From Eubacteriales bacterium (lineage in GTDB: Bacteria > Bacillota > Clostridia > Oscillospirales > CAG-272): a stretch of DNA of 64,000 bases. A program made the position numbers and the translations under genes. Below, piece after piece: positions 29,512 through 63,802 of this stretch (its first letter is position 1; every line of letters begins with the position of its first letter). The notes under the pieces were generated by a model. The model made no database searches. It had not been told where the DNA came from and saw only the letters and a program-made list of their open reading frames with translations. Location of the stretch: assembly GCA_045544955.1 (NCBI GenBank), contig JAZPZY010000029.1, positions 24,412 to 88,411 on the forward strand, given 5' to 3'.

Positions 29512-30384
29512 TCACATGATCTTATCAAAGTTTTCGAAGATCTCCTCCCACTCTTTCGGGGCTGTGCCCTCAGAGGCAAGGGAGACGTAGGAATTGTAAT
29601 TGCGGCACTTGTGCATATACTCCCGCAGATCCTCACTGCATGTGGGGGTATCCGAGGTGTTGGTGCGGACCACTTTACCCATTTCGATCTCCACCACACG
29701 GAAGGCGTTGACAGTATCCAGTTTTGTGACCACGTTTCCCTCGGGATCGACCATGCCCGTGTAGGCGATATCCCAGAAGGGGGAAAGCTGACAGGATGCC
29801 ATATACATAGAGTGATCAATGGCACGGGTACGCAGCTTCATTTCCCACTGGGGCTTCAGCGTATCGCCGTACAGGGGATAGAGAACCAGCTGTGCTCCCT
29901 TATTGCCGAGAGAGGCCGCCGCCTCCGGGAAATAGTTGTCAAAGCAGATGATGATGCCCACCCGTCCGAAATCCAACTGGAACACAGGGTATTCCGTGCC
30001 GGGAACCAGCCCCTTTTTCTGTTCCGAGGCGGTGATATTGCACTTGCAGTAGCGTCCGACGAAATTTCCGTCTCTATCGAGGATATAGGAAGAATTGCGG
30101 ATCTTGCCGTTCTCTCCCACGTAATAATCCCACGGGACCACGTAGGCGTGGTATTTCCGTGCCAGCTCCGCACAGCGAAGATGCCATGCGTCGGCGATTT
30201 CTTTCAGTCTGTCGGGTTGCCGAAGAACGTCTCTGTTTCGTACGTACTGGAATGCCTCGGGGAAGAATACCAGATCCGCGCCCTCCTTCAGGCAGTTTTC
30301 GCCAAGTGTCATCAAAACGTCCTGCCGAGCCCCGATGTCAAAGACCATTTCGTTGTCAACCTGTATAAGTCCTATCTTTGCCAT
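29512..30384 (-). CDS. Carbon-nitrogen hydrolase (nitrilase/amidase superfamily)
   Basis: 290 aa. Catalytic-triad contexts FFPEAF (Glu) and VGIIICFDNYFPE (Cys). AAGGAG RBS. 10 bp downstream of the DUF2264-like gene. Confidence 0.8.
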   Translation of the reverse strand: MAKIGLIQVDNEMVFDIGARQDVLMTLGENCLKEGADLVFFPEAFQYVRNRDVLRQPDRLKEIADAWHLRCAELARKYHAYVVPWDYYVGENGKIRNSSYILDRDGNFVGRYCKCNITASEQKKGLVPGTEYPVFQLDFGRVGIIICFDNYFPEAAASLGNKGAQLVLYPLYGDTLKPQWEMKLRTRAIDHSMYMASCQLSPFWDIAYTGMVDPEGNVVTKLDTVNAFRVVEIEMGKVVRTNTSDTPTCSEDLREYMHKCRNYNSYVSLASEGTAPKEWEEIFENFDKIM

Positions 30385-30394
30385 AACGCTCTCC

Positions 30395-32278
30395 TTATTC
30401 CAGTGTTACTGTTTTGGTGATGCCGTCGAAGGTGACGGTGACGGTGTTTTCTTCCATGCGGATCTCCGGCTTTTCTTCGGGCTTTTCCCCGGTGGAGAAA
30501 AATACGGTGGTAACGAACCGGTATTCACCGGCCTCCAGCATCTCCCCGGTTGTCCACGTGGGGTAATAGGCAAGGGGCGAGAGATTGTGCATACCGGGAT
30601 GGATCGTGCGCGTGCCGAGCACCGTAGGAACGTCCGACACTACGCTGATCTCGCTGAGTGTATTCCCGTAGGTGATTCTGGCACCGTCAAACTGTACGCT
30701 GTCGTCCGTTACGCCTACGCAGAATCCGCCCTCGCTGACCCGGTACTTCTGTCCGAGGACTACCTTGTGAATGCGGACGTGATATCCCTTTGACAGGGGC
30801 AGCACCCAGGTGGTTATTTTGCTCTCTGCATCGTTAGCAAAGGGATAGTGGCAGGATACCTGCATATCGGGTGTAGTGCTGATCGTGTAGATCCTTGTAC
30901 GCAAAGACTCCATGGAGGCATCCTTCGTGGAGAGGGAGATCATATTATCAAGAGCCGCCTTATCCCGGGAGGAAATGGAGAATCCGGCGCGGGAGTTGTA
31001 GCAGAATTTTCCGTAATATCCCGCCATATCGTTGAAGGCACTGTTGGTCGTCTGGAAATAGTGGATGGCGTTGTTGAACAGCGTCACACCACCGAAATCC
31101 TTTTCCGCTTTTATGAGAATATCCAGCCCGTCCGTCTCACATTCCACGGCGTAGTCGCCCCGGTCGATCAGAAGCGGTGCCGCCTTGCTCTGCCAAAGGG
31201 GATGATCCTCACCTGCCAGCAGGCACATAAATCCCTCTGTATAGCAGGTGGTGGCACCGTCGGAGGAGTAGTTCTCGCCGAAGCGGGGGGAGGCGTACAG
31301 ATAGCCGCAGGGGAAGCATCCGTCCTCGGTGGGGATGCTCTTTGTGAAATAGTAGTCGATGTTTTTAAGGATGATGCTCTTGGCAAGTCCCATATCGATC
31401 TTACAGCCGGCTGTCGCCGCCAGACCGAATGCGGATACCATGGCAAAGCGGTAGCTGAGCGAGCGTCCGTAGGCGGGCACGCCGCCGTCCGTGTCGAAAT
31501 AGTGAGCGAAAAACGTAAGAAACTCCTCGCTTCGCTTCAGGTATTTCTCCCGTTTTTCGGCGTATCCCGGTGCCGTCTTATCGGCTACCAGCGTCCACAG
31601 CAGGGTGTAGGCATGGTGTGCCCACGCTTCGTAATAGTCAAAGCGGCCGAAGTCCTTGCCGTCGCAGTACCAGCCGTGTCCTACGTACAGTTCCTCCAGG
31701 GCGGCGTATCCTTCCTTCATATACGGCTCGGCCGTGGGATCGCAGTATCCCAGTTCCTTCAGGATCTCTATGCTGAAAATGGGATACCACCAGTGATTGT
31801 TGGGCCAGGAATTTTTCAGTGCGATCATGGCCTGGTTGTGGATCCATCGGGCGATCTGCTCCTTTGTGTCTGCATCCAGCGGCTCCCACAGGGATTCTTT
31901 GGCGAAATGCACCGCCACCAGATAGGCGGCGATCTCGGTGATGCACTGATTGGCAAAGCCGATCTCTGCCGTTTGGGGGATATGCCGGTCGAACCGCCGG
32001 GGCGAATCGGCGGCAGTGCCCTCACAGATGACCTTCGTGATAAACCGGCATACGTGTACCGTCTCACCGCCCACGGGAATCACAAAATCCGGATCGGAAA
32101 GAAAAGGCGCGATGCCCCACAGTGGGCGGAACAGCTCCTCCAGCCGGGTGCATTCGTAGCCTACGTGATCCACCAGAAGCGGAACGTACGCCGATTCGTA
32201 CCGGGCGGCGGTACGCGTCATCAGTTTTATGTAGTAGTTTTTGGAAAGCTCGTACAGCTCTTTTCTTGAAGTAAGCAT
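30395..32278 (-). CDS. DUF2264-like protein (putative alpha/alpha-barrel glycan-active enzyme)
   Basis: 627 aa, cytoplasmic. N-terminal region (LFRPLWGIAPF..., WPNNHWWYP) recalls DUF2264 family members. The assignment is from memory, not a search. Confidence 0.5.
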   Translation of the reverse strand: MLTSRKELYELSKNYYIKLMTRTAARYESAYVPLLVDHVGYECTRLEELFRPLWGIAPFLSDPDFVIPVGGETVHVCRFITKVICEGTAADSPRRFDRHIPQTAEIGFANQCITEIAAYLVAVHFAKESLWEPLDADTKEQIARWIHNQAMIALKNSWPNNHWWYPIFSIEILKELGYCDPTAEPYMKEGYAALEELYVGHGWYCDGKDFGRFDYYEAWAHHAYTLLWTLVADKTAPGYAEKREKYLKRSEEFLTFFAHYFDTDGGVPAYGRSLSYRFAMVSAFGLAATAGCKIDMGLAKSIILKNIDYYFTKSIPTEDGCFPCGYLYASPRFGENYSSDGATTCYTEGFMCLLAGEDHPLWQSKAAPLLIDRGDYAVECETDGLDILIKAEKDFGGVTLFNNAIHYFQTTNSAFNDMAGYYGKFCYNSRAGFSISSRDKAALDNMISLSTKDASMESLRTRIYTISTTPDMQVSCHYPFANDAESKITTWVLPLSKGYHVRIHKVVLGQKYRVSEGGFCVGVTDDSVQFDGARITYGNTLSEISVVSDVPTVLGTRTIHPGMHNLSPLAYYPTWTTGEMLEAGEYRFVTTVFFSTGEKPEEKPEIRMEENTVTVTFDGITKTVTLE

Positions 32279-32300
32279 AAAATCCTCCTTTTATCGCTTC

Positions 32301-33308
32301 TTACCGCTTCGGCGGATAGCAGACGATGACCTCGCCGCACGTTACGGATACGGTGCCGCAGCCGTACGGCACGAACCATTTTTCTCCCCGTTTAACGGAG
32401 AGGCGTTGTTCCCCGATAAGAAGCTCGCCGTCCTCCGTTACCACCAGGCTTACAAAGCTGTCCGGTACAACAGAACCGCCGGTTTGCAGTTTTGCGAGTG
32501 CAAAGCAGGGCGTGTCTTTATAACTAACGAGGGAAGTGCAGAAGCCGTTCTGCTGTTTTGGCTCAATGAAATACGCTTTCCGTGCCGTGTCCTCGCTTAC
32601 ACCCTCATAAATATAGCAGTCCAGCATGGCGTCCTCGCCCACACCGTAGTGGATCTGCATGGGCGTCAGTGCCTCCCCGGCCAGGGTGATCTTTTCCATA
32701 CGCATGGTGTAGTCGGTGGGCTCCTGAATCTCCAAAAGGAAGCAGCCGGCACCGATGGCGTGGGGCGTTCCCGCCCGGACGAGCACGGTGTCTCCCGGCT
32801 TTACGGGAAAGCGGTGCAGGGCAGACAGCATACCCTCTACGTCCTGCGTTTCAAAGAGTGCCTTCCATTTCTCCCTTGTGATGCCCTCTTTGAAGCCAAT
32901 GTAAATGGATGCACCGTCCTCTACGGCAAGAATATGCCAGCACTCCGTCTTGCCGTAATTCGTGCCGAAATGCTTTCTTGAAAAATCGGGCGTGGGATGT
33001 ACCTGTATGCCGAGACGCTCCGCCGCGTTCAGATATTTCACCAAAACACCGCTGTCCTCTCTGCCGGGGCCCAGATCGTCAGGCGTTATCACCTCGGTGA
33101 TGGGCAGAGCTTCCCCATCCACCATTACCCGGGAGATACCCTCTCCCGGTCGGTAGACCCGGTTTTTCGCCTCCACGAAGGAGGAGATCCAGTCCTCCGG
33201 CAAAAAGGAGTCGGCAGGATTCGGATTGCCCACGAACTGATCCAGCAGGCGTCCGCCTCGATAGGTGCGGTATACCCGGTTTTCCGTTTGCAAAAGCGGT
33301 TTTTTCAT
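32301..33308 (-). CDS. manA: Class I mannose-6-phosphate isomerase
   Basis: 335 aa. Cupin metal-site contexts LGIQVHPT, KTECWHIL and GTPHAIG typical of type I PMI. Confidence 0.75.
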   Translation of the reverse strand: MKKPLLQTENRVYRTYRGGRLLDQFVGNPNPADSFLPEDWISSFVEAKNRVYRPGEGISRVMVDGEALPITEVITPDDLGPGREDSGVLVKYLNAAERLGIQVHPTPDFSRKHFGTNYGKTECWHILAVEDGASIYIGFKEGITREKWKALFETQDVEGMLSALHRFPVKPGDTVLVRAGTPHAIGAGCFLLEIQEPTDYTMRMEKITLAGEALTPMQIHYGVGEDAMLDCYIYEGVSEDTARKAYFIEPKQQNGFCTSLVSYKDTPCFALAKLQTGGSVVPDSFVSLVVTEDGELLIGEQRLSVKRGEKWFVPYGCGTVSVTCGEVIVCYPPKR

Positions 33309-33310
33309 GT

Positions 33311-35278
33311 TTATTTCTCTCTTTTCAGAATAATTACGTCATTGGCAGGCACGGTGACTGTCTCGGCAAAGCCGTATCCTTCCACCTTTGAGCAAACGTC
33401 GGTTTCGGTGTAGTTGAATACGAAGGCAAAAACGGCGTCCTCGTTTTCGGAAACACGTACGTGAAGCGGAGCGTCGACGGTAATATCCCGCAGACAGAAC
33501 CGATCCGCCAGCGAAGCGGCAAACGGCGTGCCCGTGCCGGCACCCTTGTTTTCTCCGTACCATACGTAGGTTGCCGCCGTGATGACGACGCCGTCACCCA
33601 GACGCTTTTCGATCACGGCAGGATAGCCGTCGGCAAAGGTGCCCACAGCCTCCCCGTCCGTCACGTGAAGAAGATCCCGTCCGTAATAGCCGGCGTATGC
33701 TTTTTCGCCGCAGACGAAATCCAGCCCCTCGTAATCGCAGTCCACGTATTCGCATCCCATGGCCGCATTGAAATCTCCGCCTGGCATGGCAGAGTGCATC
33801 ATGGAGAACTCGTCCGTGATACCGATCTTGCCGTCGCAGACGATCACGCCGCCCTCTTTTACGAATTCGGTAAGGGCACGGGCGGTGGCGGCACTTATCA
33901 CCACGGTGTTGGAGAGGATCAGCATTTTATACTCCTTGATGCGGTCGATCTTTACGATATCGCATCGCACGCCGGCACGCCACATGGCCTCGTACGCACC
34001 GCACAAAGAGGAGAGATAGATGTTCTGATCTACGTCCTCGTAGCATTTCGTGTAGCATATCTGGAAATCGTGGCTGGTTTCGTCAAACAGGATGCCCACC
34101 TTCGCCCGGACCGGCGTCAGCGTGCCCGTCTCCCGGAGTACTTCTGCAAATTCCTTGGCAAACACAAGCCGGGGCGTGCTCCGGTTTTTGTAGTCCACAA
34201 GTCCCCGACCCGCCGTTTGCAGTCCCTTGTCAAAGGGACGCCATTTCCAGTATATCAGACCCTTGGCACCCGCCGCCAGTGCCTCCGTGCACCACTGCTT
34301 CAATTCGTAGGGACGGACGCAGGTGGTGGGATTGAACAGTGCCTTTACGTGGGTCTGCATCTCAGAGACGAAAAATCCGTCTCCCGCCGAGGCGGCGTAG
34401 AACGCGTCAAAGGTGTTCCAACGGGTGTGAGGCGCGGAGCAGTACGTCTCCTGCTTCGGGTAAAAGGAAACGCCGATCTCGTCTGTGGTATCCTTCAGTA
34501 CATAATCGTCCTGGGGACGCTCATACACCCAACTGCCGTTTGTGATCATGGAGCCGATGTTGTCGGCGATCAGCGGATGTGCCGTATCCACTTCCCGGAT
34601 CGCGTCGCACCAGTTTTTCAGGTAGATCCCCAAAGCCTTCTTGCGGAAGGAGGCAAGATCCGCCGCCGGCATAACGCTCATCCACATCCAGGGGGCGTAG
34701 GATACCTGGGAAAACTCGGTATAGGTACGCTCCCATACGTCGTTCAGTCTTTCAATCGTGCCGTATTTCTGACGAAGAAAGGTGCGGAACGCCTCCATGG
34801 TGTACGCATCGTAAGAGAAGAACATGGTCTCGTTGAATACGTCGTACCCCGCAAGGGAGGCATATCCCCGATAGGCCAGCGCCGCTTTTTTGTAGTGGGC
34901 GCAGATCAGCTCGTTTACCTCGGGATGAAAGTAGTTCAGATACCCAAAGCTTGCGGGCGTGAGCTTTTTGTGGCCGTTCTCATCCACGGCGTAGTATTCG
35001 TCCTTCATCTGAAAATCGGGAATGTATTCCATCATAGGAAGCTGGCCTGCCAGCTCCATGATCACGCCGATCCCTACCTTTTCAGCGATCTCCAGTACGG
35101 TTTTTCCGGTGTTGAAAGGGTATCCCTCCTTCTTTTCTTCCCACCAGAAGGCGGCAGGCCATATCACCACTGTATCCATCCCTGCCTCTTTCATCTGGCA
35201 AAAATTCTGCTCGATCACCTCGGGCGTGTCCTCCCGGGTCAGCTTCAGAACCGAGCCGTATGCAAATTTCCGTTTCAT
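33311..35278 (-). CDS. GH42-like beta-galactosidase
   Basis: Start moved to MKRKFAYG (GGGGAGA RBS at 7 nt). N-terminal TIM barrel followed by a trimerisation-like middle domain, an architecture typical of GH42. No signal peptide. Confidence 0.65.
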   Translation of the reverse strand: MKRKFAYGSVLKLTREDTPEVIEQNFCQMKEAGMDTVVIWPAAFWWEEKKEGYPFNTGKTVLEIAEKVGIGVIMELAGQLPMMEYIPDFQMKDEYYAVDENGHKKLTPASFGYLNYFHPEVNELICAHYKKAALAYRGYASLAGYDVFNETMFFSYDAYTMEAFRTFLRQKYGTIERLNDVWERTYTEFSQVSYAPWMWMSVMPAADLASFRKKALGIYLKNWCDAIREVDTAHPLIADNIGSMITNGSWVYERPQDDYVLKDTTDEIGVSFYPKQETYCSAPHTRWNTFDAFYAASAGDGFFVSEMQTHVKALFNPTTCVRPYELKQWCTEALAAGAKGLIYWKWRPFDKGLQTAGRGLVDYKNRSTPRLVFAKEFAEVLRETGTLTPVRAKVGILFDETSHDFQICYTKCYEDVDQNIYLSSLCGAYEAMWRAGVRCDIVKIDRIKEYKMLILSNTVVISAATARALTEFVKEGGVIVCDGKIGITDEFSMMHSAMPGGDFNAAMGCEYVDCDYEGLDFVCGEKAYAGYYGRDLLHVTDGEAVGTFADGYPAVIEKRLGDGVVITAATYVWYGENKGAGTGTPFAASLADRFCLRDITVDAPLHVRVSENEDAVFAFVFNYTETDVCSKVEGYGFAETVTVPANDVIILKREK

Positions 35279-35409
35279 TCCGATTTCTCCCCTCGCATTT
35301 TTCTTCATTATAACACTTTTTTGTGTGCATTTCTTGCTGTTCGTTGCAAAATATATTGCATTTTTTGCGATTTTCTGTTACCATATAAAAAACGGGCAGG
35401 AGGAGAACG

Positions 35410-36237
35410 ATGAGCGGTACGATCTATAAATTTGAGAGGGAAATGCTGAAGGGGGAAGACATCCACATCCGGAAAAAGAGCGATAACGCTTATTACAAAA
35501 AGCATTGGCACAACTATTTTGAGATTATCTATTACAAGAACTGTGCAGGCTATTGCTCTTTGAACGGGATGGAATACCCGCTGCGGGGGAACTGCCTCTT
35601 TTTTCTCACGCCCAGTGACTTTCACCAAATCGTAACAGAGGAGGTACCGGATTCTTACGCACTGATCATTTCCTTCAGCGAGCAGATCGCAGATAAAAAA
35701 ATACTGGAAAAGCTCACCGGAGAGGCCATCGTGCTGTACGATCTTCCGCCGCTTCTCGCCGGGCAGATCGAAGAGCTGTACACGGTATTCAGCGGAAAAT
35801 CCGCCTTTCGGGAGAGATACCTCCATCACCTGCTCAACTGCATCCTGATCTGTATTCTGGAACAGGGACAGCGTGTGTTGCCGGCGGCAAAGGATATCCA
35901 TCCTATCGTCAGAGAAAGCATCGCGTATATGCTGGCTAATCCATCCGCACCTATCACGCTTCATACCTTTGCCGAAAAATTCTGCATTACGGAAGCTTAT
36001 TTCTCCCATCTGTTTCATGAGAACGCCGGCGTTTCCTTCAAGCAGTATCTGACCTCCTTGCGGATGGAGTGTGCCAAACGAATGCTGTCTGAAGGGGAGT
36101 TTTCCGTGATCGACGTGGGATTTGAGTGCGGCTTTGTCAGCCCGTCCCAGTTTTCCCGCAGCTTCAAAAAGCACACAGGCATGACGCCTTCGGAATACCG
36201 TGCGAAGAAGAACTCGGCGGCTGGAATGACGGGGTAA
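35410..36237 (+). CDS. AraC-family transcriptional regulator, divergent from the GH42 operon
   Basis: AGGAGGAG RBS. C-terminal HTH (ITEAYFSHLFHENAGVSFKQYLTSLRM...SQFSRSFKKHTGMTPSEYR). Confidence 0.85.
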   Translation: MSGTIYKFEREMLKGEDIHIRKKSDNAYYKKHWHNYFEIIYYKNCAGYCSLNGMEYPLRGNCLFFLTPSDFHQIVTEEVPDSYALIISFSEQIADKKILEKLTGEAIVLYDLPPLLAGQIEELYTVFSGKSAFRERYLHHLLNCILICILEQGQRVLPAAKDIHPIVRESIAYMLANPSAPITLHTFAEKFCITEAYFSHLFHENAGVSFKQYLTSLRMECAKRMLSEGEFSVIDVGFECGFVSPSQFSRSFKKHTGMTPSEYRAKKNSAAGMTG

Positions 36238-36270
36238 GGCGTATCGGTCTATAAGAAATTAACGGTGGAT

Positions 36271-50122: not shown

Positions 50123-50174
50123 GGTAAACACCTTTCTTTTTGGTTTTGTCAGACGCTGACGCGAAAAAATAAAA

Positions 50175-52810: not shown

Positions 52811-52843
52811 TGCACGCCAAAAGTGTCTGACTTTTGGCGTGCA
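52811..52843. repeat. Isolated perfect 14-bp-stem hairpin in an AT-rich non-coding stretch
   Basis: TGCACGCCAAAAGT-GTCTG-ACTTTTGGCGTGCA read directly. No adjacent gene end that it obviously terminates. Confidence 0.6.
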
Positions 52844-52990
52844 CATCAAAATGAAGTGAACCCAAAAGTTTAGACAAAATAAAGTATCAAATCATTTGCG
52901 AATGGACTTGGACGGACCGTAGTTCCGCCTGTGATAGAACAGAACCAGATGCTGTTGCGTTTGAGTCTGTAAATTCATAGGGGTAAAGAT

Positions 52991-54894: not shown

Positions 54895-54932
54895 AAAAAA
54901 TTGTGGGCTGCCGCATTTTAATGCGACAGCCC
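54895..54932 (-). terminator. Terminator of the SLH-protein gene
   Basis: Minus strand: GGGCTGTCGCAT-TAAA-ATGCGGCAGCCC (one mismatch) followed by ACAATTTTTT. Confidence 0.7.
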
Positions 54933-54950: not shown

Positions 54951-55964
54951 TCAGTCGTTACCACTCATAAGATCACCGAGATCCACAGAACCATCGCCGC
55001 CGATTTCGATGTAATTCTGTTTTTCCTCGTATTCTTGTTTTGCGGTCTTCAGCCATGTGTAAAATTCCTTTGAAGAAAGAAACGTTTCTTCAAATGCACT
55101 TTGCTCCGACGCCGTCATGTGCATATACGTTTCATAGGAACATACATCGGCAGACGGCGGCGGATCGGACGGTGCAGGCGGATCCGGCTTTTCCGGCTCG
55201 GCCGCGGGCGGCTCGGGGGGATCCGGTTCCAGATCACCACCCGGAATATAGGGCGGCCAGAAGGGGATCGTCCAGCTGTCCTCCTCCGTACTGTCGGAAT
55301 CGGGCGGATCCGGGGGCAGGACAGGAGTGTCTGTTTCTTTGCTTATGCCGTTTTTTTGAATATCCGCCGCTTTCAGAAAATCCTCCGCGGTGAATACTTC
55401 ATTTTCCATCAGCAGATGGGCAAGAGACTCCTCGTCCAGCAAAAGGGCATTCCAGAAAACGGTGACCGCCTCGCCGCGGCAGAAGTCCTGATTGGGTACA
55501 GAGACGGAAATCAATCCCAGAGATGCCGCCAGTGCGTACGGATTATCCCAGCGGAACTGCGCCGCCTCTCCGCTGTCTTTGTAACCGAGAACCCGGAGTA
55601 CCAGCGTCAGAAACATGCAGTCCGTCATGGGGGAATCGGGAGCAAATTCCGTATCGGAAATACCGTTTGTGATCTTATGCATAAAGGCGTAGTTCACATA
55701 CGGCTTTGCCCAATCGGGTACATCCGTAAAGGGGGCGGTATAAGATATGGCTTTCGCCCGCGCTTCTTTACCGATCATACGCACGAGAAGCGTGATACCT
55801 TCTGCCCGGGAAAGGCGGCCGTCCAGATCGTAATCTACGTTATTACCGAGGAACAGCCCCAGATGATGCAGCGCGTCTGCCGTATTGAGCTGCTGATCCG
55901 TATAGGCACTGACCGCGGGGATAAAAAGCAGAACGGTCAGAAGAATGGCGAGGATTCTCTTCAC
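54951..55964 (-). CDS. Secreted SLH-domain (S-layer homology) protein with a Pro-rich linker and acidic C-terminal domain
   Basis: GTG start after AAAGGGGTGG. Signal peptide (LLFIPAVSA-Y). SLH-like repeats (FTDVPDWAKPYVNYAF...NGISDTEFAP...). PPDPPDS/PEPPAAEPEKPDPPAPSDPPP linker. The C-terminal IEIGGDGSVDLGDL resembles a calcium-binding loop. Confidence 0.7.
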   Translation of the reverse strand: MKRILAILLTVLLFIPAVSAYTDQQLNTADALHHLGLFLGNNVDYDLDGRLSRAEGITLLVRMIGKEARAKAISYTAPFTDVPDWAKPYVNYAFMHKITNGISDTEFAPDSPMTDCMFLTLVLRVLGYKDSGEAAQFRWDNPYALAASLGLISVSVPNQDFCRGEAVTVFWNALLLDEESLAHLLMENEVFTAEDFLKAADIQKNGISKETDTPVLPPDPPDSDSTEEDSWTIPFWPPYIPGGDLEPDPPEPPAAEPEKPDPPAPSDPPPSADVCSYETYMHMTASEQSAFEETFLSSKEFYTWLKTAKQEYEEKQNYIEIGGDGSVDLGDLMSGND

Positions 55965-55997
55965 TGTACCACCCCTTTCTTTATACTTTCCTATCCA

Positions 55998-56132
55998 TCA
56001 GCCAACCACGCCGTCCCATACACCGGAAGTGTTTTCACCGGTCCATTCGTCTTCCAAGCCCTCGCCGTTGGCAATCGCTTCCGTGTAAAATGAGAGAATT
56101 TCCACGGTGGGCTTTACGTATTTTTCTTTCAT
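55998..56132 (-). CDS. Small acidic ORF (44 aa) between the giant GH127-like gene and the SLH gene
   Basis: ATG 6 nt after GAGGT. Sequence MKEKYVKPTVEILSFYTEAIANGEGLEDEWTGENTSGVWDGVVG. Below the length cutoff of the supplied ORF track. Starts 31 bp after the giant gene stop and ends 33 bp before the SLH start. Confidence 0.45.
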   Translation of the reverse strand: MKEKYVKPTVEILSFYTEAIANGEGLEDEWTGENTSGVWDGVVG

Positions 56133-56163
56133 ATTGTTACCTCGTCTTTTCAGAATCCGCCGC

Positions 56164-59100
56164 TTACAGGCAGCGGAATTTCTTTACGTCAAACATCAGA
56201 ACGACCATGGCAGGCTCGCTTTCGAGAGACAGGGATGCAGGTGCCGCTGTGACATTGTAGGCGGGCGTGCAAAGCACCACGCCGGTGTCTGCCGTGCCCA
56301 CCAGTTCAATAGCGGCGGTCAGATCCGAAAAATCGGCGATGCCGGTTACGGTCACCTTGAACGCCTGCCCTGCCTTCAGTACAGACTGAATCAGCACAGG
56401 ATCCGGACGCAGAATTACGTCACCGCTTGTGAACTGGGAACTGGTCAGCCGAATTTGAATATTCAGATTCTCGGCTGTTCCATCTGCCAGGTGAGCAGTT
56501 GCCGCTTTGAAATCGGGGAGGAATTTCCAGGAGAATGCGTCGCCGTTTTTGCTGACGACAGGTTGGTTGTAGTTCAACTTTGCGTCTACCAGCCGGTATC
56601 CCGTCTCACCGTTCACCTTCACAGGGAGATAATCGTTATCAAAGGGGAGTTTGAGGACGCCCTCCGCCTCTACTGAAATTACGCCGCTTTCCGTGGCATC
56701 GATCACGTGAGAGCCGGCGGCGGCGTTTACGGCGAGGGCTGTCAGCGCTTTGCCGTTCAGATCCAGCGTGACGCTGGCAGGAACCTTGATTTCCATATCA
56801 CAGATCACGTTCTGCATCATGCGTACAGTGGTGCCGGCAGGCGCTCCGTTCAGTGCGTTCTGCAGTACGGCGGCGGAATCGCTGTCCGCTTCCACGATTA
56901 CGTTTCTGCCCACGGAGAGTGACGCGTTGGCTCCCGCACTGACGACGTATTTATTTGCCGTTGCGGTGAATTTGAATGTACCGCCGTTGATAGCGGCAGC
57001 AGCTGTTCCGGTCACGCTGAAGATCGTGCTGCTGCTCGAAGAGAACGTACCTCCGTTTACGGTCAGCGTACCGCTCTCCCGTACTGCCACGTACGTGCCG
57101 GCTTCAAACGCACCGCCGTTGATGGTCACGGAGCCGCCGTCCACGGCTCTGCAGTAGATCAGCCGTTTCGCGGTTCTGTACGTGCCGGCATTGATGATAA
57201 ACTGTGCGCTCTGGTTGCGGTTGAAGAAGATGCCGTAATCACCGCTTGTGTAAGTTTTGGCATCCACCACACCGTCACCCACGGGGTTTTCCGCCGTGGC
57301 AGAGGAGTCCGTCAGAATCACCGTGCAGGCTGTATCCGTGTCAAAGGTGAAGGCGTTTGCATTGGTGGAGTAAAGCGTCTGCCCGTTCAGATCGACGGTA
57401 AGAATACCTGCCGCCGGATGAATGTAACCACCGGGCACATCCGTCTTGATGTCAAATTGATTCACCGTTTTCTGCAGGACGATATACTGGACTTCCCGGT
57501 CGGTGTTGGACTCGGCCAGTGCTTGTGCAAAAGTACCCGCACCGAACAGGGTATTGGCATCGGTGCCCCAGTATGCTTCTGCGTCGATAGGCTTTGCGAT
57601 CCTGTAAGCTTTGCCTGATTTCATCACGGTAACCCGGGTGTTCAGTTCATCGACCAGGGCGTATCCCTCGGGGAGAATAAACTGATCGGTGATCTCTACG
57701 TCACGGTACGCAGTGCCGTCGTAGTATCCGTTAAAGACGGTCATACCGTTTACGTCGTCGCCCATGGCGGAAGCATCCAGCCGGCCGCCGCAGTAGTAGA
57801 ACGTACCGCGGATACCGTCAACGAGGGTGATATCGCCGGTTTTGTAGTTTTCGTCGCCAAGCACTACCATGGCTTTATGCCCGGAGGCGGTGCCCAGGTA
57901 AATGGGCGCCACGCCGTTTGACACGTTGTCCTTCTGGAAACTTTGAATTTTGCCCTTCCGGATCGTAACGGTACCGCCGTTGGCGAACAGACCGTAGTAT
58001 CCGTGATACGTACCGCCGTTTATGGTAACGTGCAGACCCTCCGGGGAACCGCGGGTAAGAAGCGGTGCATACGTGTTCTGTGTGGCGCTCATTACGTCGC
58101 CATCACCGCCGGTAAAGGTGATGTTTCCGCCCGTAATGTTGGCGTTGGTGGCAAAGATCGCCGCCAGCTTCGTTGTCAGATCGTGTCCGTTCAGATCAAA
58201 GACGAAATTTGCATAGCTGGATTCAAACAGCTTGTCGTTGGTGGTGATGATGTCCCCGCCGCTGAAATCCTTCAGCAGCTTTACGTAGGTGATGCCGTTG
58301 TCGGCGGATTTGAGTGCGGTGAAGATATCTGCCAGCGTGCCGGTGTACCACATGCCGTCTGCCGTCTGATAGGTGACCTCCGCATTGGCGGGAGTGACGA
58401 GGCAAAGCAGTTCTTTGCCGTTCACTGTGGCTTTAATGTTCGCCACACCGATACCAACGAAGGTCACCGTGCCGTCCTGGGAAACCATAGCCACGGCCTC
58501 GTTATCGGAGGACCAGTTGACAACGGTGTTCGTGATTGCTTCACCCGGGTGGGCGGTGCAGACTACCTGCAGGCGGACGGGGGCATCCCCGGCCTGACCG
58601 GTAATTGCCGTGGTGCTGAGTGCATAATCGCACCTGCCGATGGCATCTGCCGCAAGATCCAGACTGCTTCGTGCCAGAGAGAGGGCGGAAAGCGTCGCCG
58701 TGGGATTGGCCGCGGTGGTGCTTGCCAGTGCCTGTGCCCAGGCGAATCGCTCCAGCGATGCCTCGCAGACGCCGGCGGTGTTTACACCGCTTGCCGCAAG
58801 GATAGAGGCGTGCAAAGCCGATGCCTGCGGGGCAGCGGTGGTATTGAGAACCGCACCCGTGGTGATCTCGTATTCAACAGACCGCTTCGCTTCTTTATCG
58901 CCGTTCAGTGCCACGAGGCGGAAGTAATAGGTCTTGCCGTTTTCGGGAAACTGTACGGCGAATTTATCCGTTTTGAGGTTCAGATAGGTGGGAATATTCA
59001 ATCCGCGCAGGTTCATGATAGTGCCTGTGTACACGCCGGGCTCGGTGCCGTACACGATCTTGTACGTATGGGTGGGAGATTCAAAATTGGTAGCGATCTG

Positions 59101-62100
59101 CACACCCTTGTAAATGCTCTGCACGTCTTTCAGCTGAAATTCGGGGAGGGTGCCGTCCGCACTCAAAAACTCGCTCTTTTCAGCATCTGTAAGGCCACGT
59201 ACTGTAAAGGCGGATACCGCAAAAGGTGCATTATAGGAACGGAGTCCCACGGAGCCGCTTGCAAACAGGTTGTTCTGTCCCTCGTAGACGAACTCGCCGT
59301 CCACATATACCCGGAACGTGTTACCGTAAACGAGAACTTTCAGCGTGTATTCCGTGCCTGCCGTGTACGTTTTGCCGGGCACGGATACCGTTTGGCTTTC
59401 ACTCTCCCACCATCTGTTTCCGTCCGTGTAGCCGATCTTCAGCTGCATATTCGCAGACGTGGGGATGATGCCCACATAGTAGCCTTTGTATTTGTCCACG
59501 GCGGCGTCAGAAACTTGGGACACACGGATAATTACTCCGTAGTTGGAGCCGGTAGTTCCGCCCGAGAGGGTGGTCTCCACGGCGTAATCCGTCCAGGACT
59601 CGCCGCCGGTTGTCATCTTGAGGTTGGAACTGGCACCCACGTTCATCTTGCCGTCTGCAAAGGTGACAACGTCCTCCCCGTAGAAGGTCCAGTCCTTCTC
59701 TGCGGTGTCCGCACTGGTGAAATCGGACACGTGCGTACCGATATCGACTGTGCTTTCCGAGGGAACGAAGGCAGGAATGTTGACGGACACTTCATTGGAG
59801 TATACCTGCTGACCGTTCAGAAGGGCGGACAGGCGGAAATAGTAAGTATGTCCCGGGATCAGTCCGGAGATCACCGCCGCCGCATCGTAGAGATTGCGCA
59901 CGGTGTGGGTGTAACTGCCCGATGCGGTGCCGTATTCTACCGTGTAGAAACTGATAAGGTCTCTGTTAAGATTGGTTTTGAGCGTTACGGTACTTTCCCC
60001 GGTAAGGGTGGCGGAGTGGATCTTTATTTCCGTCATGGGAGAAACGGGAATTACCTGAATACCCGTGATGGTCACACCGGTTGGATTGAAGAAGCGGACG
60101 TTGTTGTACTGCCCGGCGTCAAATTTGAAGCCTTTCACGGTGGATTTCGTCAGCGAATCGATACAGGTGGGAAGCTTTGAGATCAGCCCCGTGAGCGTGT
60201 AGACACCGCTTGCATCCAGCACCAGTGCTTCTTCGTATTTTGAGTTTATGTTCATGGTGGCGGTGCCGGCACCCGTGTAGAATACCTTGAGTGTGTAGTC
60301 TGCCGCAGGACGCAGAATCACGTTGTCAAACTCCACCACGTTTCTGCCGTCCTCCACATAGTAGAACGCGCTGTCTGCATCCCGAATGGTGGAGTAATCG
60401 GCAGGCACCTCCGCACCTACCCAGGGCATCAGCGTGATTCGCAGTTTGGTACAGCCGTATGGAACGAGAGTGATATCCTCCCAAAGTACCGGATTCTCCG
60501 CGAGGGGAGAGAAGGGCGGCTCGGGTACGATGTTGGCACGCAGTTCCCACTGGGGCACCTTCTGTCCTTTCGCGGCGATCTTCACCGGCGCGTTTTCCAG
60601 CGTGAAGGGCTGCAGGGGAATCTCATCTGCCACCGTTACGGTCAGGCAGTTGTTGATGTTTTCATCGTTCAGCACCAGTGCGTAATTCCAGTCGCTGGCG
60701 GCGAAGGTCTCGTAGTTATGGATAGTGTCTACGGGAATGGGATAGGAGGTCTGTGCGGTGGAAAGATCCGTCAGTTCCCGCCATTCTTCCTTCACGCCCA
60801 GGCTGAAGTTCAGCGCACCGTATTTTACGCCCACGGAATTGTTGTACCAGTAGGAGATCCGCAATTCACGGGGGAATACGATCTCCACAACGTCGCCTTT
60901 TGTCCACGTCCGTTCTACACGGAGGAATCCGTCCTCCACCGTTCCCGTGACGGTCTGTCCGTTTACCTTGAATGAGGGTGTCTTGCACCAGCCGGGTACA
61001 CGGAGCAGAAGCGGGAATACGGCAGTCTCACCCTCGTAGGTGATGCCGATGGTATCCTTGAAGGGGTAGTCCGTTTCCTGATGGAACACCGCCGTTTTGC
61101 CGTCCGCCACCTTGGCGGTCACCCGGTTGGGACCGTAGGCGATAACGGCAAGACCGCCGTCATCCGTTGCCATATACATGGAGGAGACGAACTTGGGCCA
61201 GCCCATGTGCATATTGGGCAGACAGCACTCGTAGCCGGAGGGCACGCTGTAAGCTGCCTCACTGCCCCGGTCATCCGACTGCTCGTGGTCGCCGCGGGTA
61301 GCCATCACCCGGTTTTCCGCCTGAAAATAGATATGTCCCGTAAAATCGGAGGTAAAGCAGGCGGGCAGGGCATTGTAGGCCACATTCTCCAACTCGTCCC
61401 CGATCCAGCCCTCGCCGATGATGCTCATGCCTGTTTCGTAAGAAAGCATACCCTCCACTACGGCACAGGTCTCAAGGCCCCGGTGGGGGTAATTGTCCCG
61501 GGCGCGCTCATCCGAATGTACGAAGCCGTCAATCCGTCCGTGGTCGATGCCCCAGTTGCGGATTGCTTCTCTGAGGGCGATGCGGTCCTCCTCCTTGCCC
61601 GTCATCTGCCAGAGGATGGCAGGGGTGCGGAGTGCCAGGGTGGAGTCCACCGTATGCTCACGGGTGGTGGTATTGATGTACACGTCCGTCCAGGTCCGGT
61701 CACAGTTTTTGGAGCCGGTAGATTCTGCAATCATCTCCGCAAGACCCAGCAGCCAGTCACTGTCCTCCGGCTTTGCCGGATCGTACACCCGGTTGTAGTA
61801 CCACAGAATCACTTCGATATTTTCGCCGCCGCGGGCAATGCTCCAGAGCTGGAAGGGATTTTTGGGAATCTGGGTCATCTGGAAGGCGAAATAGCCGCCC
61901 AGCACTTCCATTACCCGCTCATCGGGATCCCCCTCGTTTTCGGTGGATTCATAGTAATCCCGGAGGGTGCCCAGCACCATCATATGCGGCCACCAGTCGT
62001 TCCCGGTGAGGGAGGATCCGTCCCCGTGGACGGCGGGGCCGAAATAGCCGGTCTTCTTGCCGCTTTCCAGAATGGGATCGATCCACTGCATGGCCATTTC

Positions 62101-62487
62101 TTTCAACTCGGGATCGTCCAGCGTCCACGCCAGCGCCACAAGACCGCGGAGATAGCAGGGGCCCTTTTCCCAATAATAATCGTAGGAACTGTTCGTGCCG
62201 CCGCGCCAGGCGTTATCCGCACTCCATATGGCCCAGTACTGGTGGAGCAGGCTGGTCAGATTCTCTTTCTGATAGAGCATCTGCTGGAGCAGCCAGTCCT
62301 CGGCACGCACCGCCCCTTGGGGCAGCTTGGAAAAAGCGTTTTTGTGCAGTTTTCCTGTGTTGAACGTGTAATTGGCTTCTGCTGTCTCAACACTGGTCGC
62401 TGCGTACGATATGATCTCCATAGACGTAGTCAGTATCATGAACAAACAGAGAACGGCGCAGAGAATGCCTCGCGTTTTTTTGTTCAT
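56164..62487 (-). CDS. Giant secreted multidomain protein: GH127/GH146-like (DUF1680) beta-L-arabinofuranosidase-type domain, Fn3-like domains, DUF1080/LamG-like domain, Big_2 Ig-like domain, long beta-helix-like repeat region
   Basis: Start at MNKKTRGILCAV (AGGGAG RBS), about 2107 aa, with a signal peptide. ETCAVVEG and GYECCLPNMHMGWPKF match the ETCA / CCxPN active-site contexts of GH127 HypBA1 (recalled). WTFYG...YKGYYVGI...FRVYVDGEFVYEG is DUF1080/concanavalin-like. VVNWSSDNEAVAMVSQDGTVTFVGIGVANIKATV is Big_2-like. Repeated GGT(F/Y) motifs suggest a beta-helix. Confidence 0.75.
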   Translation of the reverse strand: MNKKTRGILCAVLCLFMILTTSMEIISYAATSVETAEANYTFNTGKLHKNAFSKLPQGAVRAEDWLLQQMLYQKENLTSLLHQYWAIWSADNAWRGGTNSSYDYYWEKGPCYLRGLVALAWTLDDPELKEMAMQWIDPILESGKKTGYFGPAVHGDGSSLTGNDWWPHMMVLGTLRDYYESTENEGDPDERVMEVLGGYFAFQMTQIPKNPFQLWSIARGGENIEVILWYYNRVYDPAKPEDSDWLLGLAEMIAESTGSKNCDRTWTDVYINTTTREHTVDSTLALRTPAILWQMTGKEEDRIALREAIRNWGIDHGRIDGFVHSDERARDNYPHRGLETCAVVEGMLSYETGMSIIGEGWIGDELENVAYNALPACFTSDFTGHIYFQAENRVMATRGDHEQSDDRGSEAAYSVPSGYECCLPNMHMGWPKFVSSMYMATDDGGLAVIAYGPNRVTAKVADGKTAVFHQETDYPFKDTIGITYEGETAVFPLLLRVPGWCKTPSFKVNGQTVTGTVEDGFLRVERTWTKGDVVEIVFPRELRISYWYNNSVGVKYGALNFSLGVKEEWRELTDLSTAQTSYPIPVDTIHNYETFAASDWNYALVLNDENINNCLTVTVADEIPLQPFTLENAPVKIAAKGQKVPQWELRANIVPEPPFSPLAENPVLWEDITLVPYGCTKLRITLMPWVGAEVPADYSTIRDADSAFYYVEDGRNVVEFDNVILRPAADYTLKVFYTGAGTATMNINSKYEEALVLDASGVYTLTGLISKLPTCIDSLTKSTVKGFKFDAGQYNNVRFFNPTGVTITGIQVIPVSPMTEIKIHSATLTGESTVTLKTNLNRDLISFYTVEYGTASGSYTHTVRNLYDAAAVISGLIPGHTYYFRLSALLNGQQVYSNEVSVNIPAFVPSESTVDIGTHVSDFTSADTAEKDWTFYGEDVVTFADGKMNVGASSNLKMTTGGESWTDYAVETTLSGGTTGSNYGVIIRVSQVSDAAVDKYKGYYVGIIPTSANMQLKIGYTDGNRWWESESQTVSVPGKTYTAGTEYTLKVLVYGNTFRVYVDGEFVYEGQNNLFASGSVGLRSYNAPFAVSAFTVRGLTDAEKSEFLSADGTLPEFQLKDVQSIYKGVQIATNFESPTHTYKIVYGTEPGVYTGTIMNLRGLNIPTYLNLKTDKFAVQFPENGKTYYFRLVALNGDKEAKRSVEYEITTGAVLNTTAAPQASALHASILAASGVNTAGVCEASLERFAWAQALASTTAANPTATLSALSLARSSLDLAADAIGRCDYALSTTAITGQAGDAPVRLQVVCTAHPGEAITNTVVNWSSDNEAVAMVSQDGTVTFVGIGVANIKATVNGKELLCLVTPANAEVTYQTADGMWYTGTLADIFTALKSADNGITYVKLLKDFSGGDIITTNDKLFESSYANFVFDLNGHDLTTKLAAIFATNANITGGNITFTGGDGDVMSATQNTYAPLLTRGSPEGLHVTINGGTYHGYYGLFANGGTVTIRKGKIQSFQKDNVSNGVAPIYLGTASGHKAMVVLGDENYKTGDITLVDGIRGTFYYCGGRLDASAMGDDVNGMTVFNGYYDGTAYRDVEITDQFILPEGYALVDELNTRVTVMKSGKAYRIAKPIDAEAYWGTDANTLFGAGTFAQALAESNTDREVQYIVLQKTVNQFDIKTDVPGGYIHPAAGILTVDLNGQTLYSTNANAFTFDTDTACTVILTDSSATAENPVGDGVVDAKTYTSGDYGIFFNRNQSAQFIINAGTYRTAKRLIYCRAVDGGSVTINGGAFEAGTYVAVRESGTLTVNGGTFSSSSSTIFSVTGTAAAAINGGTFKFTATANKYVVSAGANASLSVGRNVIVEADSDSAAVLQNALNGAPAGTTVRMMQNVICDMEIKVPASVTLDLNGKALTALAVNAAAGSHVIDATESGVISVEAEGVLKLPFDNDYLPVKVNGETGYRLVDAKLNYNQPVVSKNGDAFSWKFLPDFKAATAHLADGTAENLNIQIRLTSSQFTSGDVILRPDPVLIQSVLKAGQAFKVTVTGIADFSDLTAAIELVGTADTGVVLCTPAYNVTAAPASLSLESEPAMVVLMFDVKKFRCL

Positions 62488-62656
62488 AGATCGGTTCTCC
62501 CTTTCTTTTTTTTGGAATTTTTGGAAAAATATACTTGCATTCATGGGAAATCGATGGTATAATCAAAACAGAAGACGGCTTCTGTTATATTGATTATACC
62601 GCAGCCTTTTTCGGCATACAACCACCATCACCGTAGAAAAGGGGAGAAAATCCGAC

Positions 62657-63430
62657 ATGACGGAAGGCGCGAACAGATACATGGGCGGCGGCCGTTTTAC
62701 ATCCCGGGCACCATGGATCCATAAGAGCGTCCCGGGAAAAACCTATGAGCTGATGCTTGTCACGGAAGGCGAGATGTGGATGCGTGAGGACGGCGTGGAC
62801 TATCCGCTCACAAAGGACATGGTTCTGGTGCTGGAGCCGGGGAAATTCCGGGAGGGATACCGGGTGTCTAAGAGCAGAGTCTCCTTTTACTGGATCCATT
62901 TTCTCGATCCCGATCCCGATTTTTCGCAGTATAAGAAGTATCTGAAGATTCACGATCCGCAGAACCTTGCCATGCTGTGCCGGCAGCTCACTCATTACGA
63001 AACGAAAAAATTTCCGCCGTCCGTGTGCAATTCACTGCTGCACGTGCTGCTGCACGAGCTTGTCCGGCAGAGCCGGGACGAAACAGAAATCGCACCTCTG
63101 CCCTATCGGATCGAGCAGTGGATCAATAACAACATTGATCTCTCTCCCACAGTGGCAGACGTGTCGGATATGTTCGGATATAACGCCGAGTACCTTTCGA
63201 GAGTTTATAAAAAAGCGTACGGAACGACTCTCAAAAAAGCCATTGACGAAAAATCCATGAACCGGGCAAAGCGGCTTCTTTTGGAAAGCGATCTTTCTCT
63301 TACTGCCATTTCCGAACGGTTAGGGATGAGTGATTATAAGATTTTTCTGAAATTCTTTAAGTATCACGAGGGAGTTACTCCGTCGGAATACCGGAAACTG
63401 TACCGGGTGATACGTGTAAATAACTGCTGA
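62657..63430 (+). CDS. AraC-family transcriptional regulator, divergent from the giant GH127-like gene
   Basis: Cupin-like N-terminus and C-terminal HTH (YNAEYLSRVYKKAYGTTLKKAIDEKSM...DYKIFLKFFKYHEGVTPSEYR). Confidence 0.85.
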   Translation: MTEGANRYMGGGRFTSRAPWIHKSVPGKTYELMLVTEGEMWMREDGVDYPLTKDMVLVLEPGKFREGYRVSKSRVSFYWIHFLDPDPDFSQYKKYLKIHDPQNLAMLCRQLTHYETKKFPPSVCNSLLHVLLHELVRQSRDETEIAPLPYRIEQWINNNIDLSPTVADVSDMFGYNAEYLSRVYKKAYGTTLKKAIDEKSMNRAKRLLLESDLSLTAISERLGMSDYKIFLKFFKYHEGVTPSEYRKLYRVIRVNNC

Positions 63431-63577: not shown

Positions 63578-63802
63578 AGCCCATGACCTCCTCCGTCGGT
63601 CATGGAAGGGAACAGTTCTCATCTCACAGGCGAGACAAAAGAAACAGCCACCTTACGATGACTGCTTTCTTTCGTTTGGTTGCGGGGATGGGATTTGAAA
63701 GGCCCTTCCGAAAATATAGTCGCCTGGCCTCGCCTCGGTACACTCGGCTTGCCATGCTCCTTATTTTCGTGAATCGCTTCGTGAAAATGCCGCACCGCGG
63801 CG
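63578..63802 (-). repeat. Composite repeat R5: CATGACC/GGTCATG core, terminator hairpin, T-loop side of the tRNA-like half, then the E3-bearing insertion (anticodon side missing)
   Basis: 63578-63699 is nearly identical to 37565-37687 (R3). After GGGATTTGAA it continues with the same insertion sequence as R4 (AGGCCCTTCCGAAAATATAGTCGCCTGG...GCCGCACCGCGGCG) and then diverges. Confidence 0.8.

Follow-up and report, generated by a model that had tools for sequence, protein, structure and literature searches.

The subject of this analysis is a window of 64,000 nucleotides (nt) of DNA from an Eubacteriales bacterium (assembly GCA_045544955.1, contig JAZPZY010000029.1), and within it a group of three genes encoding a secreted giant protein with a head related to glycoside hydrolase (GH) family 127, a 44-amino-acid (aa) peptide and a secreted protein with S-layer homology (SLH) domains. 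We propose that these genes make a cell-surface-displayed glycosidase, in which the SLH protein (the anchor) would hold the giant (the cargo) by contact between CTD60, the C-terminal domain of the anchor, and module A, the last module of the cargo; to this proposal we would give an even chance. Since the trio of module A, peptide and CTD60 recurs in other loci, the C-terminus types of cargo and anchor vary together, and CTD60 is kept when the SLH domains are swapped for a lipobox, comparison of the sequences supports a functional tie in which the SLH protein serves the giant. That the SLH protein anchors the giant had already been put forward in a preliminary description made from the nucleotide sequence: the functional tie is borne out by the recurrent trio and the co-varying C-termini, whereas physical binding, like maturation of the peptide in trans and the part played by the peptide itself, is what we infer.

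The three-gene operon and its products

The cargo gene (62487..56164, minus strand) begins with an ATG at 62487 preceded by a AAAGGGAG ribosome-binding site (RBS) and stops at 56164, giving 2107 aa; the frame of the mechanical open reading frame (ORF) call begins at 62544 and gives 2126 aa. The peptide gene (56132..55998, minus strand; GAGG RBS) follows after 31 nt, and the anchor gene (55964..54951, minus strand; GTG start at 55964, 337 aa) after a further 33 nt. An intrinsic terminator with a 12-bp stem, 8 GC pairs and a T tract (54932..54905, minus strand), the sole strong one in the region, lies 3' of the anchor gene, and the layout reads as one operon of giant, 44-aa ORF and anchor ended by this terminator. 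An exact-sequence look-up of the giant and of the GTG-start anchor returned no identical record; for the peptide it returned contigs of less than 1 kb only, and the identical 44-aa peptide is predicted by gene callers, unnamed, in other public assemblies.

From N- to C-terminus the giant comprises a signal peptide, the GH127-like head, a region resembling carbohydrate-binding modules (CBM), an Fn3-like module, DUF1080, a second Fn3-like module, Big_2 and three beta-strand-rich modules. The catalytic (aa 111-433) and middle (aa 446-539) domains of the head, which in GH127 are an (alpha/alpha)6 domain and a beta-sandwich and are encoded here at 60871..62157 on the minus strand, scored above their Pfam cut-offs (PF07944, 46.6 bits versus 24.9; PF20736, 68.9 versus 24.2), and the ETCA and ECCLPN motifs aligned with solved GH127 structures, which substantiates the GH127-like domain with ETCA and CCxPN-type motifs recognized earlier. 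The preliminary description had named poor conservation of the catalytic Cys and Glu residues as a finding that would speak against this assignment; across an alignment of 38 family sequences, E327, E339, C341, C421 and C422 never vary, and they find their counterparts in solved GH127 structures. A profile of this 38-member family matched the structures 4qjy (E 6.5e-47), HypBA1 (3wkw, E 1.4e-24) and the GH146 enzyme 5opj (E 8.3e-22). E339 and C341 aligned to the ETC motif, and C421 and C422 to the CC motif, of 4qjy, 5mqo, 6ex6 and 3wkw, and E327 matched the Glu of G-E-S/A-F in 4qjy and 6ex6 and fell one column off, beside a gap, in the HypBA1 alignment. In HypBA1 the Cys3-Glu zinc site is formed by E338, C340, C417 and C418, with Cys417 as nucleophile and Glu322 as acid/base (PMC8106489). 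Because this zinc, Cys and Glu set is conserved, the head of the giant looks like a catalytically competent GH127-type cysteine glycosidase.

The head thus resembles the characterized members of GH127 (HypBA1 3WKX, Geobacillus 4QJY, Bacteroides 5MQO/6EX6) and GH146 (5OPJ) in both Pfam domains, the Cys3-Glu zinc site, the nucleophile Cys and the acid/base Glu. In contrast to the solved GH127 enzymes, it belongs to a distant subfamily, its single sequence matching them only from the ETC motif onward (E 3e-15); a deletion makes it 4 residues shorter from the acid/base Glu to the ETC motif, and it forms part of an extracellular, multidomain protein of 2107 aa. A HMMER scan of 1.84 billion representatives retrieved 5935 relatives of the N-terminal 700 aa, many of them multidomain proteins of 1300-2600 aa, and the GH127-like subfamily to which the head belongs is a large one, with about 5900 representatives (at 50% identity) of multidomain, extracellular enzymes. 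We did not use aceric acid hydrolase as a substrate label for the giant, since the match to the corresponding NCBIfam model was far under the cut-off (74.6 bits versus 950) and covered only a 200-aa stretch.

Among the accessory domains listed in the preliminary description, DUF1080 (3keto-disac_hyd, LamG-like; aa 931-1088, 59224..59697, minus strand; PF06439, 36.2 bits versus 26.8) and the Ig-like Big_2 (aa ~1288-1366, 58390..58626, minus strand; 27.3 bits versus 22.8) both exceeded their Pfam cut-offs; the Fn3-like modules showed the expected motifs, on which their assignment depends, but the fn3 Pfam score was below threshold (15.9 versus 25). No support was obtained for a keto-sugar-active DUF1080. 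The GH127...DUF1080 pairing is repeated in five close homologous giants, the C-terminal modules of which differ (CBM35, CBM6, GH43, FIVAR, LRR), and giants of the GH127 and GH43 kinds repeatedly carry DUF1080 as an accessory. Because of this recurrent pairing, DUF1080 looks, from sequence, like a standing accessory of the GH127 head and not like a second catalytic centre.

The C-terminal third of the giant comprises two beta-strand-rich modules (aa 1369-1635 and 1636-1857; 56917..58383, minus strand), delimited by motif positions, and module A (aa 1858-2107, the last ~250 aa of the cargo; 56167..56916, minus strand), the putative docking module. Each beta-strand-rich module starts with a helix and an xDLNG motif, and the pair bears [IV]NGG[TA][FY] motifs; the roughly 700 aa of GGT(F/Y) repeats described earlier shrink to four or five GG[TA][FY] motifs at aa 1489-1840. 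An AlphaFold2 (AF2) model of the C-terminal 747 aa, built on a 14-sequence alignment, was of low confidence (predicted local distance difference test, pLDDT, 50.5), with short regular strands at fragment aa 330-510, too poor to uphold the beta-helix suggested earlier, and word-based homologue searches for the C-terminal parts gave 7 and 6 matches only. Module A has the consensus VTLDLNGK..VID..DN.YLPV..G.NGY..SD.F..KF.P.F. and is 39% identical to the C-terminus of the giant of locus L001 (E 4e-31); it is also conserved in loci L002, L007, L013 and L033 and ends short secreted proteins as well (P0278-P0283). In cargo proteins it always occupies the extreme C-terminus and is followed by a peptide gene. 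Weak relatives of the beta-strand-rich modules carry, in cis and at the position of module A, SLH domains or a VPATG sorting signal. The giant itself has no [LIVSNA]PX[TSA]G sortase-like motif and no C-terminal hydrophobic segment, its signal peptide being the sole hydrophobic 19-mer, in agreement with the earlier view that it lacks an anchor of its own. Module A, CTD60 and the 44-aa peptide matched no Pfam or NCBIfam family.

The anchor also begins with a signal peptide, cargo and anchor each carrying one of the Sec type. It continues, on the minus strand, with the triple SLH region (aa 21-210, nt 55335-55904), a Pro/acidic spacer (aa 211-274) and CTD60 (aa 275-337, nt 54954-55142). Pfam recognized one SLH repeat (29.2 bits). 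The AlphaFold model of the anchor (pLDDT 80.6; residues 21-210 mostly >90) matched the triple-SLH crystal structures SpaA-SLH and Sap, with template-modelling (TM) scores of 0.63-0.80 over ~170 residues, and on this model the N-terminal domain is a real triple-SLH fold, as the three SLH-like repeats seen in the preliminary description had suggested. The ligand-binding TRAE-like motifs SRAE (R53) and CRGE (R163) are invariant in the anchor family; repeat 2 reads MTDC, with no Arg, and SpaA likewise lacks an Arg in its second SLH repeat. The spacer has 64 residues, 34% of them Pro, and an isoelectric point (pI) of 4.05. CTD60, the C-terminal 63 aa (pI 4.2), contains IEIGGDGSVDLGDL; the model gives it three helices (pLDDT about 90) and, after them, a near-invariant IEIGGDG[ST][IV]DLGD hairpin. 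It had no Pfam family at E up to 10 and no sequence match in the PDB.

In the cellulosomes of Clostridia, SLH-bearing anchoring scaffoldins hold enzymes by cohesin-dockerin pairs, and the IEIGGDGSVDLGDL segment had been likened to a dockerin or EF-hand loop; it could in principle be a dockerin, with a cohesin-like domain of the giant as its binding partner. Consistent with this, the loop fits EF-hand positions 1, 5, 6 (Gly), 8 (hydrophobic), 9 and 12 and is nearly invariant in the family, and cellulosome anchors are themselves SLH-bearing proteins. However, a dockerin consists of two duplicated Ca-binding segments of ~22 aa, each a loop and a helix, whereas CTD60 has a single acidic loop placed 6-8 residues from the C-terminus; the empty Pfam and PDB searches, the un-dockerin-like AF2 model with three helices ahead of the loop and the absence of any Pfam cohesin match in the giant point in the same direction. 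We therefore rejected CTD60 as a dockerin and consider cohesin-dockerin display very improbable. By analogy, anchoring by SLH scaffoldins is still the closest functional counterpart of the display proposed here: in both, a separate SLH protein would tether secreted glycoside hydrolases through a small acidic, possibly Ca2+-binding module on a Pro-rich linker. The differences are that no cohesin or dockerin was detected in the window proteins, that the small module sits on the anchor and not on the enzyme, and that the display has an obligatory third partner in a leader-type peptide gene, joined in the full system by enzymes like those of RiPPs (peptides that ribosomes make and that are modified after translation).

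A recurrent cassette with a lasso-type leader peptide

The first 21 aa of the 44-aa peptide form a conserved leader of the lasso type (Y5-x-x-P8-x-V10 ... E-A-I-A21), and the other 23 an acidic tail that varies. Its family, collected by regular expression and a hidden Markov model (HMM) of the leader, occupies about 25 non-redundant loci (E 1e-8 to 1e-11), follows the pattern M-K-x-x-[YF]-x-x-P-x-[IVL]-E-[IV]...E-x-[IV]-[IA] and is always encoded directly after a cargo gene, ahead of ScmC or the anchor. In these about 25 members conservation stops at residue 21, which places the aromatic residue (Y5) at -17, and the tails, 10-25 residues long, are acidic, differ from member to member and in many cases have an aromatic residue near their end. 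A YxxPxL leader motif at such spacing is found in lasso precursors handled with PqqD-type RiPP recognition elements (RREs) (PMC10368454). Judged by its conservation, the 44-aa ORF is a lasso-type leader peptide gene and not filler.

To place the trio in context, 143 anchor homologues at E up to 1e-3 and 388 genomic relatives were set in their loci. The ~30 nearest ones have a cassette in common that remoter SLH proteins lack. In what we call type A, the order is a cargo ending in module A, the small peptide, ScmC (an HPr-kinase-like P-loop protein), PqqD, an anchor made of SLH and CTD60, and a SipW-like S26 peptidase; NTP_transf_5 and an ATP-binding cassette (ABC) exporter are often added, and the capsule genes Wzz, CpsD-like, CpsB and LCP commonly come after the cassette. 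The trio of module A, peptide and CTD60 anchor is present in the window and the corresponding strain contig (L005), in L001, L002, L007, L013 and L033 and twice in L086, and module A followed by the peptide occurs also in L088 and L094. Its gene order recurs in about ten independent loci from several genera, a small number of independent units on which to count co-occurrence. This synteny does not bear out the possibility, raised in the preliminary description, that the SLH protein is unrelated to the giant. The two-component system envisaged there has also to be enlarged, as the 44-aa ORF turned out to be the most constant partner of the cargo gene and other loci add a RiPP-like maturation set.

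Upstream of module A the cargo varies, from proteins of 283 aa to others of 2742 aa, with GH127 in the window and CBM4_9 in L094, where the protein of CBM4_9 and module A is followed by a peptide and then by a second module A protein. Locus L086 has two tandem units (6720-8453 and 10221-13824) with module A proteins of 283 and 855 aa, each followed by a gene for a 45-46-aa peptide; the anchors encoded next are lipoproteins of 183-189 aa, devoid of SLH domains, that consist of a lipobox, an S/T/N-rich linker and CTD60, the sole conserved part, and PqqD, NTP_transf_5, ScmC and a SipW-like peptidase adjoin the units. A complete type A cassette is present in a cultured isolate, Flavonifractor sp. 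An82 (L033, NZ_NFHG01000027.1, 1419-13075), with a 2437-aa cargo, peptide, ScmC, PqqD, SLH-CTD60 anchor, SipW-like peptidase and ABC exporter. Across these loci, then, the aligned sequences indicate that module A, the peptide and CTD60 are the constant elements, and the cargo and the anchoring device (SLH in most loci, a lipobox in L086) the variable ones. A second group, type B, has giants whose C-terminal domain is of another, unrelated kind and anchors devoid of CTD60, so that the C-termini of cargo and anchor switch together. Except for L033, the related loci nearly all come from contigs of metagenomes or metagenome-assembled genomes (MAGs), several of them incomplete, and a search of Joint Genome Institute (JGI) metagenomes for further loci yielded two short contigs.

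These comparisons bear on the simplest alternative, that the giant is freely released and the genes downstream of it are unrelated neighbours. The giant does lack a recognized anchor, and many homologous GH127 giants have other C-terminal modules; against chance adjacency stand the gene order kept in about ten independent loci of several genera, in all of which module, peptide and CTD60 belong to the same families, as well as the shared terminator and gaps of 31-33 nt in the window. We give this explanation almost no credence.

Type B loci revealed a further relation between peptide and anchor: the last 6-10 residues of the anchor are those of the cognate peptide (EGDNGTGWG, PNQTPWG, VGGENQLPLG, NTTPEF). 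Cognate peptide/anchor pairs beat all non-cognate pairs in 10 of 11 loci, and none of 20000 shuffles reached the observed sum. In four independent pairs (L025 9779-9808/11108-11137; L034 7337-7369/8726-8758; L026 9909-9932/10736-10759; L021 1446-1466/2570-2590) the tail codons differ by 14 synonymous and 0 non-synonymous changes in 32 codons, and the 3' flanks are unrelated; because the differences are synonymous only and the flanks unrelated, the identity of the tails indicates selection and not a gene conversion of recent date. Locus L026 has two cargo genes, each with a peptide gene behind it, and the tails of both peptides are shared with the single downstream anchor. Together, these sequences suggest that peptide and anchor of type B loci have their tail in common as a recognition epitope. 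Such mimicry holds for type B only; for the window we discarded it, as it was not significant (p about 0.4-0.5).

The leader raises a different explanation, namely that the locus is a RiPP-type peptide system whose product is the 44-aa peptide, a phospho- or glyco-modified signal or antimicrobial, with the giant and the SLH protein as targets, receptors, immunity or structural partners. The YxxPx[LIV] leader with its conserved spacing fits this explanation, as do the PqqD, HPr-kinase-like protein, NTP_transf_5, peptidase and ABC exporter of related loci, and characterized homologous sets phosphorylate and glycosylate lasso precursors (PMC8498205; PMC10368454): in kinase-containing lasso clusters an HPr-kinase homologue phosphorylates the precursor, stimulated by the RRE, and a nucleotidyltransferase adds hexoses (PMC8498205, PMC10368454). 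Even so, neither a lasso cyclase (Asn-synthase-like) nor a B2 protease was found among the precomputed Pfam annotations of loci L001-L004 and L086, and no other class-defining enzyme appeared in the annotated loci. Every cargo gene comes with a separate peptide gene (L026, L086, L094), and the anchor tails copy the peptide tails under selection, which ties the peptide to proteins and not to a diffusible role. Finally, the 64-kb window encodes no PqqD RRE, modifying enzyme or exporter; PqqD and modifying enzymes do occur in the paralogous locus of the same MAG and in most of the related loci. On balance we regard a peptide product as improbable.

The likeness of the related loci to phosphorylated and glycosylated lasso clusters (paeninodin PadeK; pseudomycoidin PsmK/PsmN; BsfK/BsfB1/BsfN) extends to the YxxPxL-type leader, the discrete PqqD RRE, the HPr-kinase homologue, the PF14907-type nucleotidyltransferase and the ABC exporter. 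In contrast to those clusters, a SipW-like S26 peptidase takes the place of cyclase and B2 protease, most cassette peptides do not end in Ser, and the cassette is coupled to large secreted proteins and to wall or lipid anchors; it compares with the tailoring half of kinase-containing lasso clusters and, as the annotated loci showed no cyclase, does not count as a lasso cluster itself. The kinase-like protein also matched ScmC and HprK_rel_A, and PqqD matched ScmD, weakly and far under the cut-offs (32.8 bits versus 125, the score of the kinase-like protein against ScmC, and 21.4 versus 200), and a precomputed Pfam match to PF27840 in related loci enters the same comparison with ScmC and HprK-related proteins. 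In contrast to the SynChlorMet cassette (ScmC/ScmD), the annotated related loci showed no radical-SAM ScmE/ScmF partners. The SynChlorMet ScmC and HprK-related kinase A families have NCBIfam/TIGRFAM definitions only, and the literature searched contained no paper that deals with SynChlorMet/ScmC or that connects SLH proteins to PqqD or to an HPr-kinase homologue.

In Bacillus subtilis the tapA-sipW-tasA operon pairs a dedicated signal peptidase, SipW, with matrix proteins. The cassette peptidase is likewise of the ER (Ser/His) SipW-like type and is encoded beside secreted surface or matrix proteins; it differs in lacking an N-terminal membrane anchor, in travelling with an RRE and a leader peptide, and in being absent from the window. 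Because it has no membrane anchor and accompanies the RRE and the leader peptide, its sequence makes a cytoplasmic leader peptidase more likely.

Proposed display on the cell surface

In the mechanism that we propose, the cargo would be exported by Sec, its Fn3-like, LamG-like (DUF1080) and Ig-like domains serving as spacers or binding domains and module A coming last. The anchor would be exported separately and its triple SLH domain would bind the secondary cell-wall polymer (SCWP); binding of pyruvylated SCWP is a property of the SLH family. From there the disordered Pro/acidic spacer would project the helical CTD60 with its single EF-hand-like acidic loop, and CTD60 would capture module A non-covalently, possibly with Ca2+, keeping the enzyme on the wall. 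The peptide, in turn, would be bound by PqqD, modified by ScmC and possibly by NTP_transf_5, trimmed by the SipW-like peptidase and exported, and its tail could act as a cargo-recognition epitope that assists, caps or regulates docking, which is the least certain step. As type A loci show no resemblance between the tails, the epitope idea is carried over to the window from type B, and in type A CTD60 presumably fills this role.

How the peptide could be processed is suggested by the genome. The anchor of the strain contig L005 is 98% identical to that of the window, with 97.4% nucleotide identity over 5.1 kb, and this contig (67) belongs to the same MAG as contig 120, which holds a complete type A cassette (L001/L006); the leader of the window peptide and that of the complete cassette are 70% identical. 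Because the same MAG contains a complete cassette and the window has no such enzymes, we read the window trio most simply as a satellite that needs the complete cassette in trans, where PqqD, ScmC and the SipW-like peptidase of the paralogous cassette would probably act. In the broadest form of the proposal, which we offer only tentatively, gut Clostridia (Oscillospiraceae, Flavonifractor, Faecousia and their relatives) would have an envelope system not described before, with the locus as its satellite, that couples a lasso-type leader peptide genetically to secreted cargo and to anchors specialized for wall or lipid. Handling of the peptide would fall to a PqqD RRE, an HPr-kinase-like enzyme, a PF14907 nucleotidyltransferase, a SipW-like peptidase and an ABC exporter, and its variable tail, possibly phospho-glycosylated, would mediate or regulate docking. 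In such a system the type B anchor would bear the selected copy of the tail, and the window-type anchor would use its 60-aa helical domain, which may bind Ca2+.

Several observations weigh against the proposed docking and maturation. The 44-aa peptide lacks a signal peptide, and the window does not encode an exporter. Neither in the window nor in the other type A loci did the peptide tail resemble the anchor C-terminus (permutation p about 0.37), and the window peptide scored no better than shuffles against an HMM of anchor tails (p = 0.48). Loci L008 and L011 (Candidatus Flemingiibacterium, about 10000-12500) carry an SLH-CTD60 anchor with a SipW-like peptidase and then capsule genes after it, and the 10 kb upstream of the anchor contain neither cargo nor peptide, ScmC or PqqD; conversely, L088 has a cargo and a peptide with no anchor nearby. 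The same-genome argument, in addition, rests on MAG binning, which could wrongly join contigs.

Some of these observations favour the main rival to docking on the anchor, in which module A itself would bind a capsule, exopolysaccharide (EPS) or SCWP glycan, so that the cargo anchors itself, and the SLH-CTD60 protein and the peptide would belong to a separate envelope or RiPP-like process sharing the locus. Wherever secreted proteins have module A, it forms their extreme C-terminus, complete cassettes adjoin the Wzz, CpsD-like, CpsB and LCP capsule genes, and L008 and L011 keep anchor, peptidase and capsule genes without a cargo. Moreover, in L085 (1169-2005) a 278-aa module A protein, devoid of signal peptide and partner peptide, is encoded immediately upstream of genes for a Peptidase_M15_3 protein and a holin, where phages typically have their receptor-binding proteins. 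This phage link is a single locus, with no PHROG match and no relative in 2.9 million viral contigs, and we did not adopt a phage origin of module A. Self-anchoring also leaves unexplained why the C-terminus types of cargo and anchor switch jointly and why CTD60 is retained when SLH is exchanged for a lipobox, and we hold it to be unlikely.

Trans-anchored surface display of a glycosidase is in itself of a known kind; what would be new is a cassette that uses RiPP-type machinery for surface assembly, a novelty to which we give a substantial, though less than even, chance. If true, it would mean that RiPP-type chemistry serves to build the cell surface and not to make a diffusible natural product. 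Gut Clostridia without cellulosomes or sortase signals must retain huge glycan-degrading enzymes, and a modular cassette of cargo, peptide and anchor would be a new answer to this need; it would likewise give a function to module A, CTD60, the peptide family and the ScmC-like kinase, which now have none in Pfam or NCBIfam. Lasso-type sets of RRE, kinase and nucleotidyltransferase without a cyclase are frequent orphans of genome mining, for which coupling to surface proteins and copying of tails would offer a testable role, and the cultured Flavonifractor sp. An82 provides an experimental handle on a complete cassette.

Genomic surroundings of the operon

Divergent from the cargo gene lies a gene for an AraC-family regulator (62657..63430, plus strand; Pfam HTH_18/HTH_AraC), which is probably the controller of the three-gene operon. 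The intergenic region of ~110 nt between the two genes contains, at about 62560-62600, a near-perfect palindrome of ~40 nt, TATAATCAA-TAT-AACAGAAG CCGT CTTCTGTT-T-TTGATTATA, a candidate operator or divergent promoter element. An Rfam scan of the window returned no RNA family.

The 64-kb window as a whole is a neighbourhood of glycan utilization, with GH78, GH20, GH42, GH106-like, BNR sialidase-like and DUF2264 genes. Set among the glycoside hydrolase genes are those of two secreted paralogues of ~1300 aa (22153-26082, plus strand, and 37770-41690, minus strand), 59% identical over their full length, for which no Pfam family was found.

It is worth mentioning that a direct repeat of ~130 nt occurs at 53084-53212 and 63675-63802, its copies being 93-98% identical and 10.59 kb apart. 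The pair flanks a Fic gene, the three-gene operon and the AraC gene, and had no Rfam match and no unusual fold; the repeats could mark the ends of an inserted or recombining segment. The strain contig L005 is collinear with the window up to 53211, then enters the repeat and continues at window positions 36259..30349. The strain-variable stretch comprises ~16.6 kb (window 36260-52910 versus L005 5147-7502) and carries genes for a GH106-like protein, a putative sugar-binding protein with no Pfam match, PGA_cap, DUF4838, AraC, beta-lactamase-like and EutH proteins, and a protein of 1306 aa.

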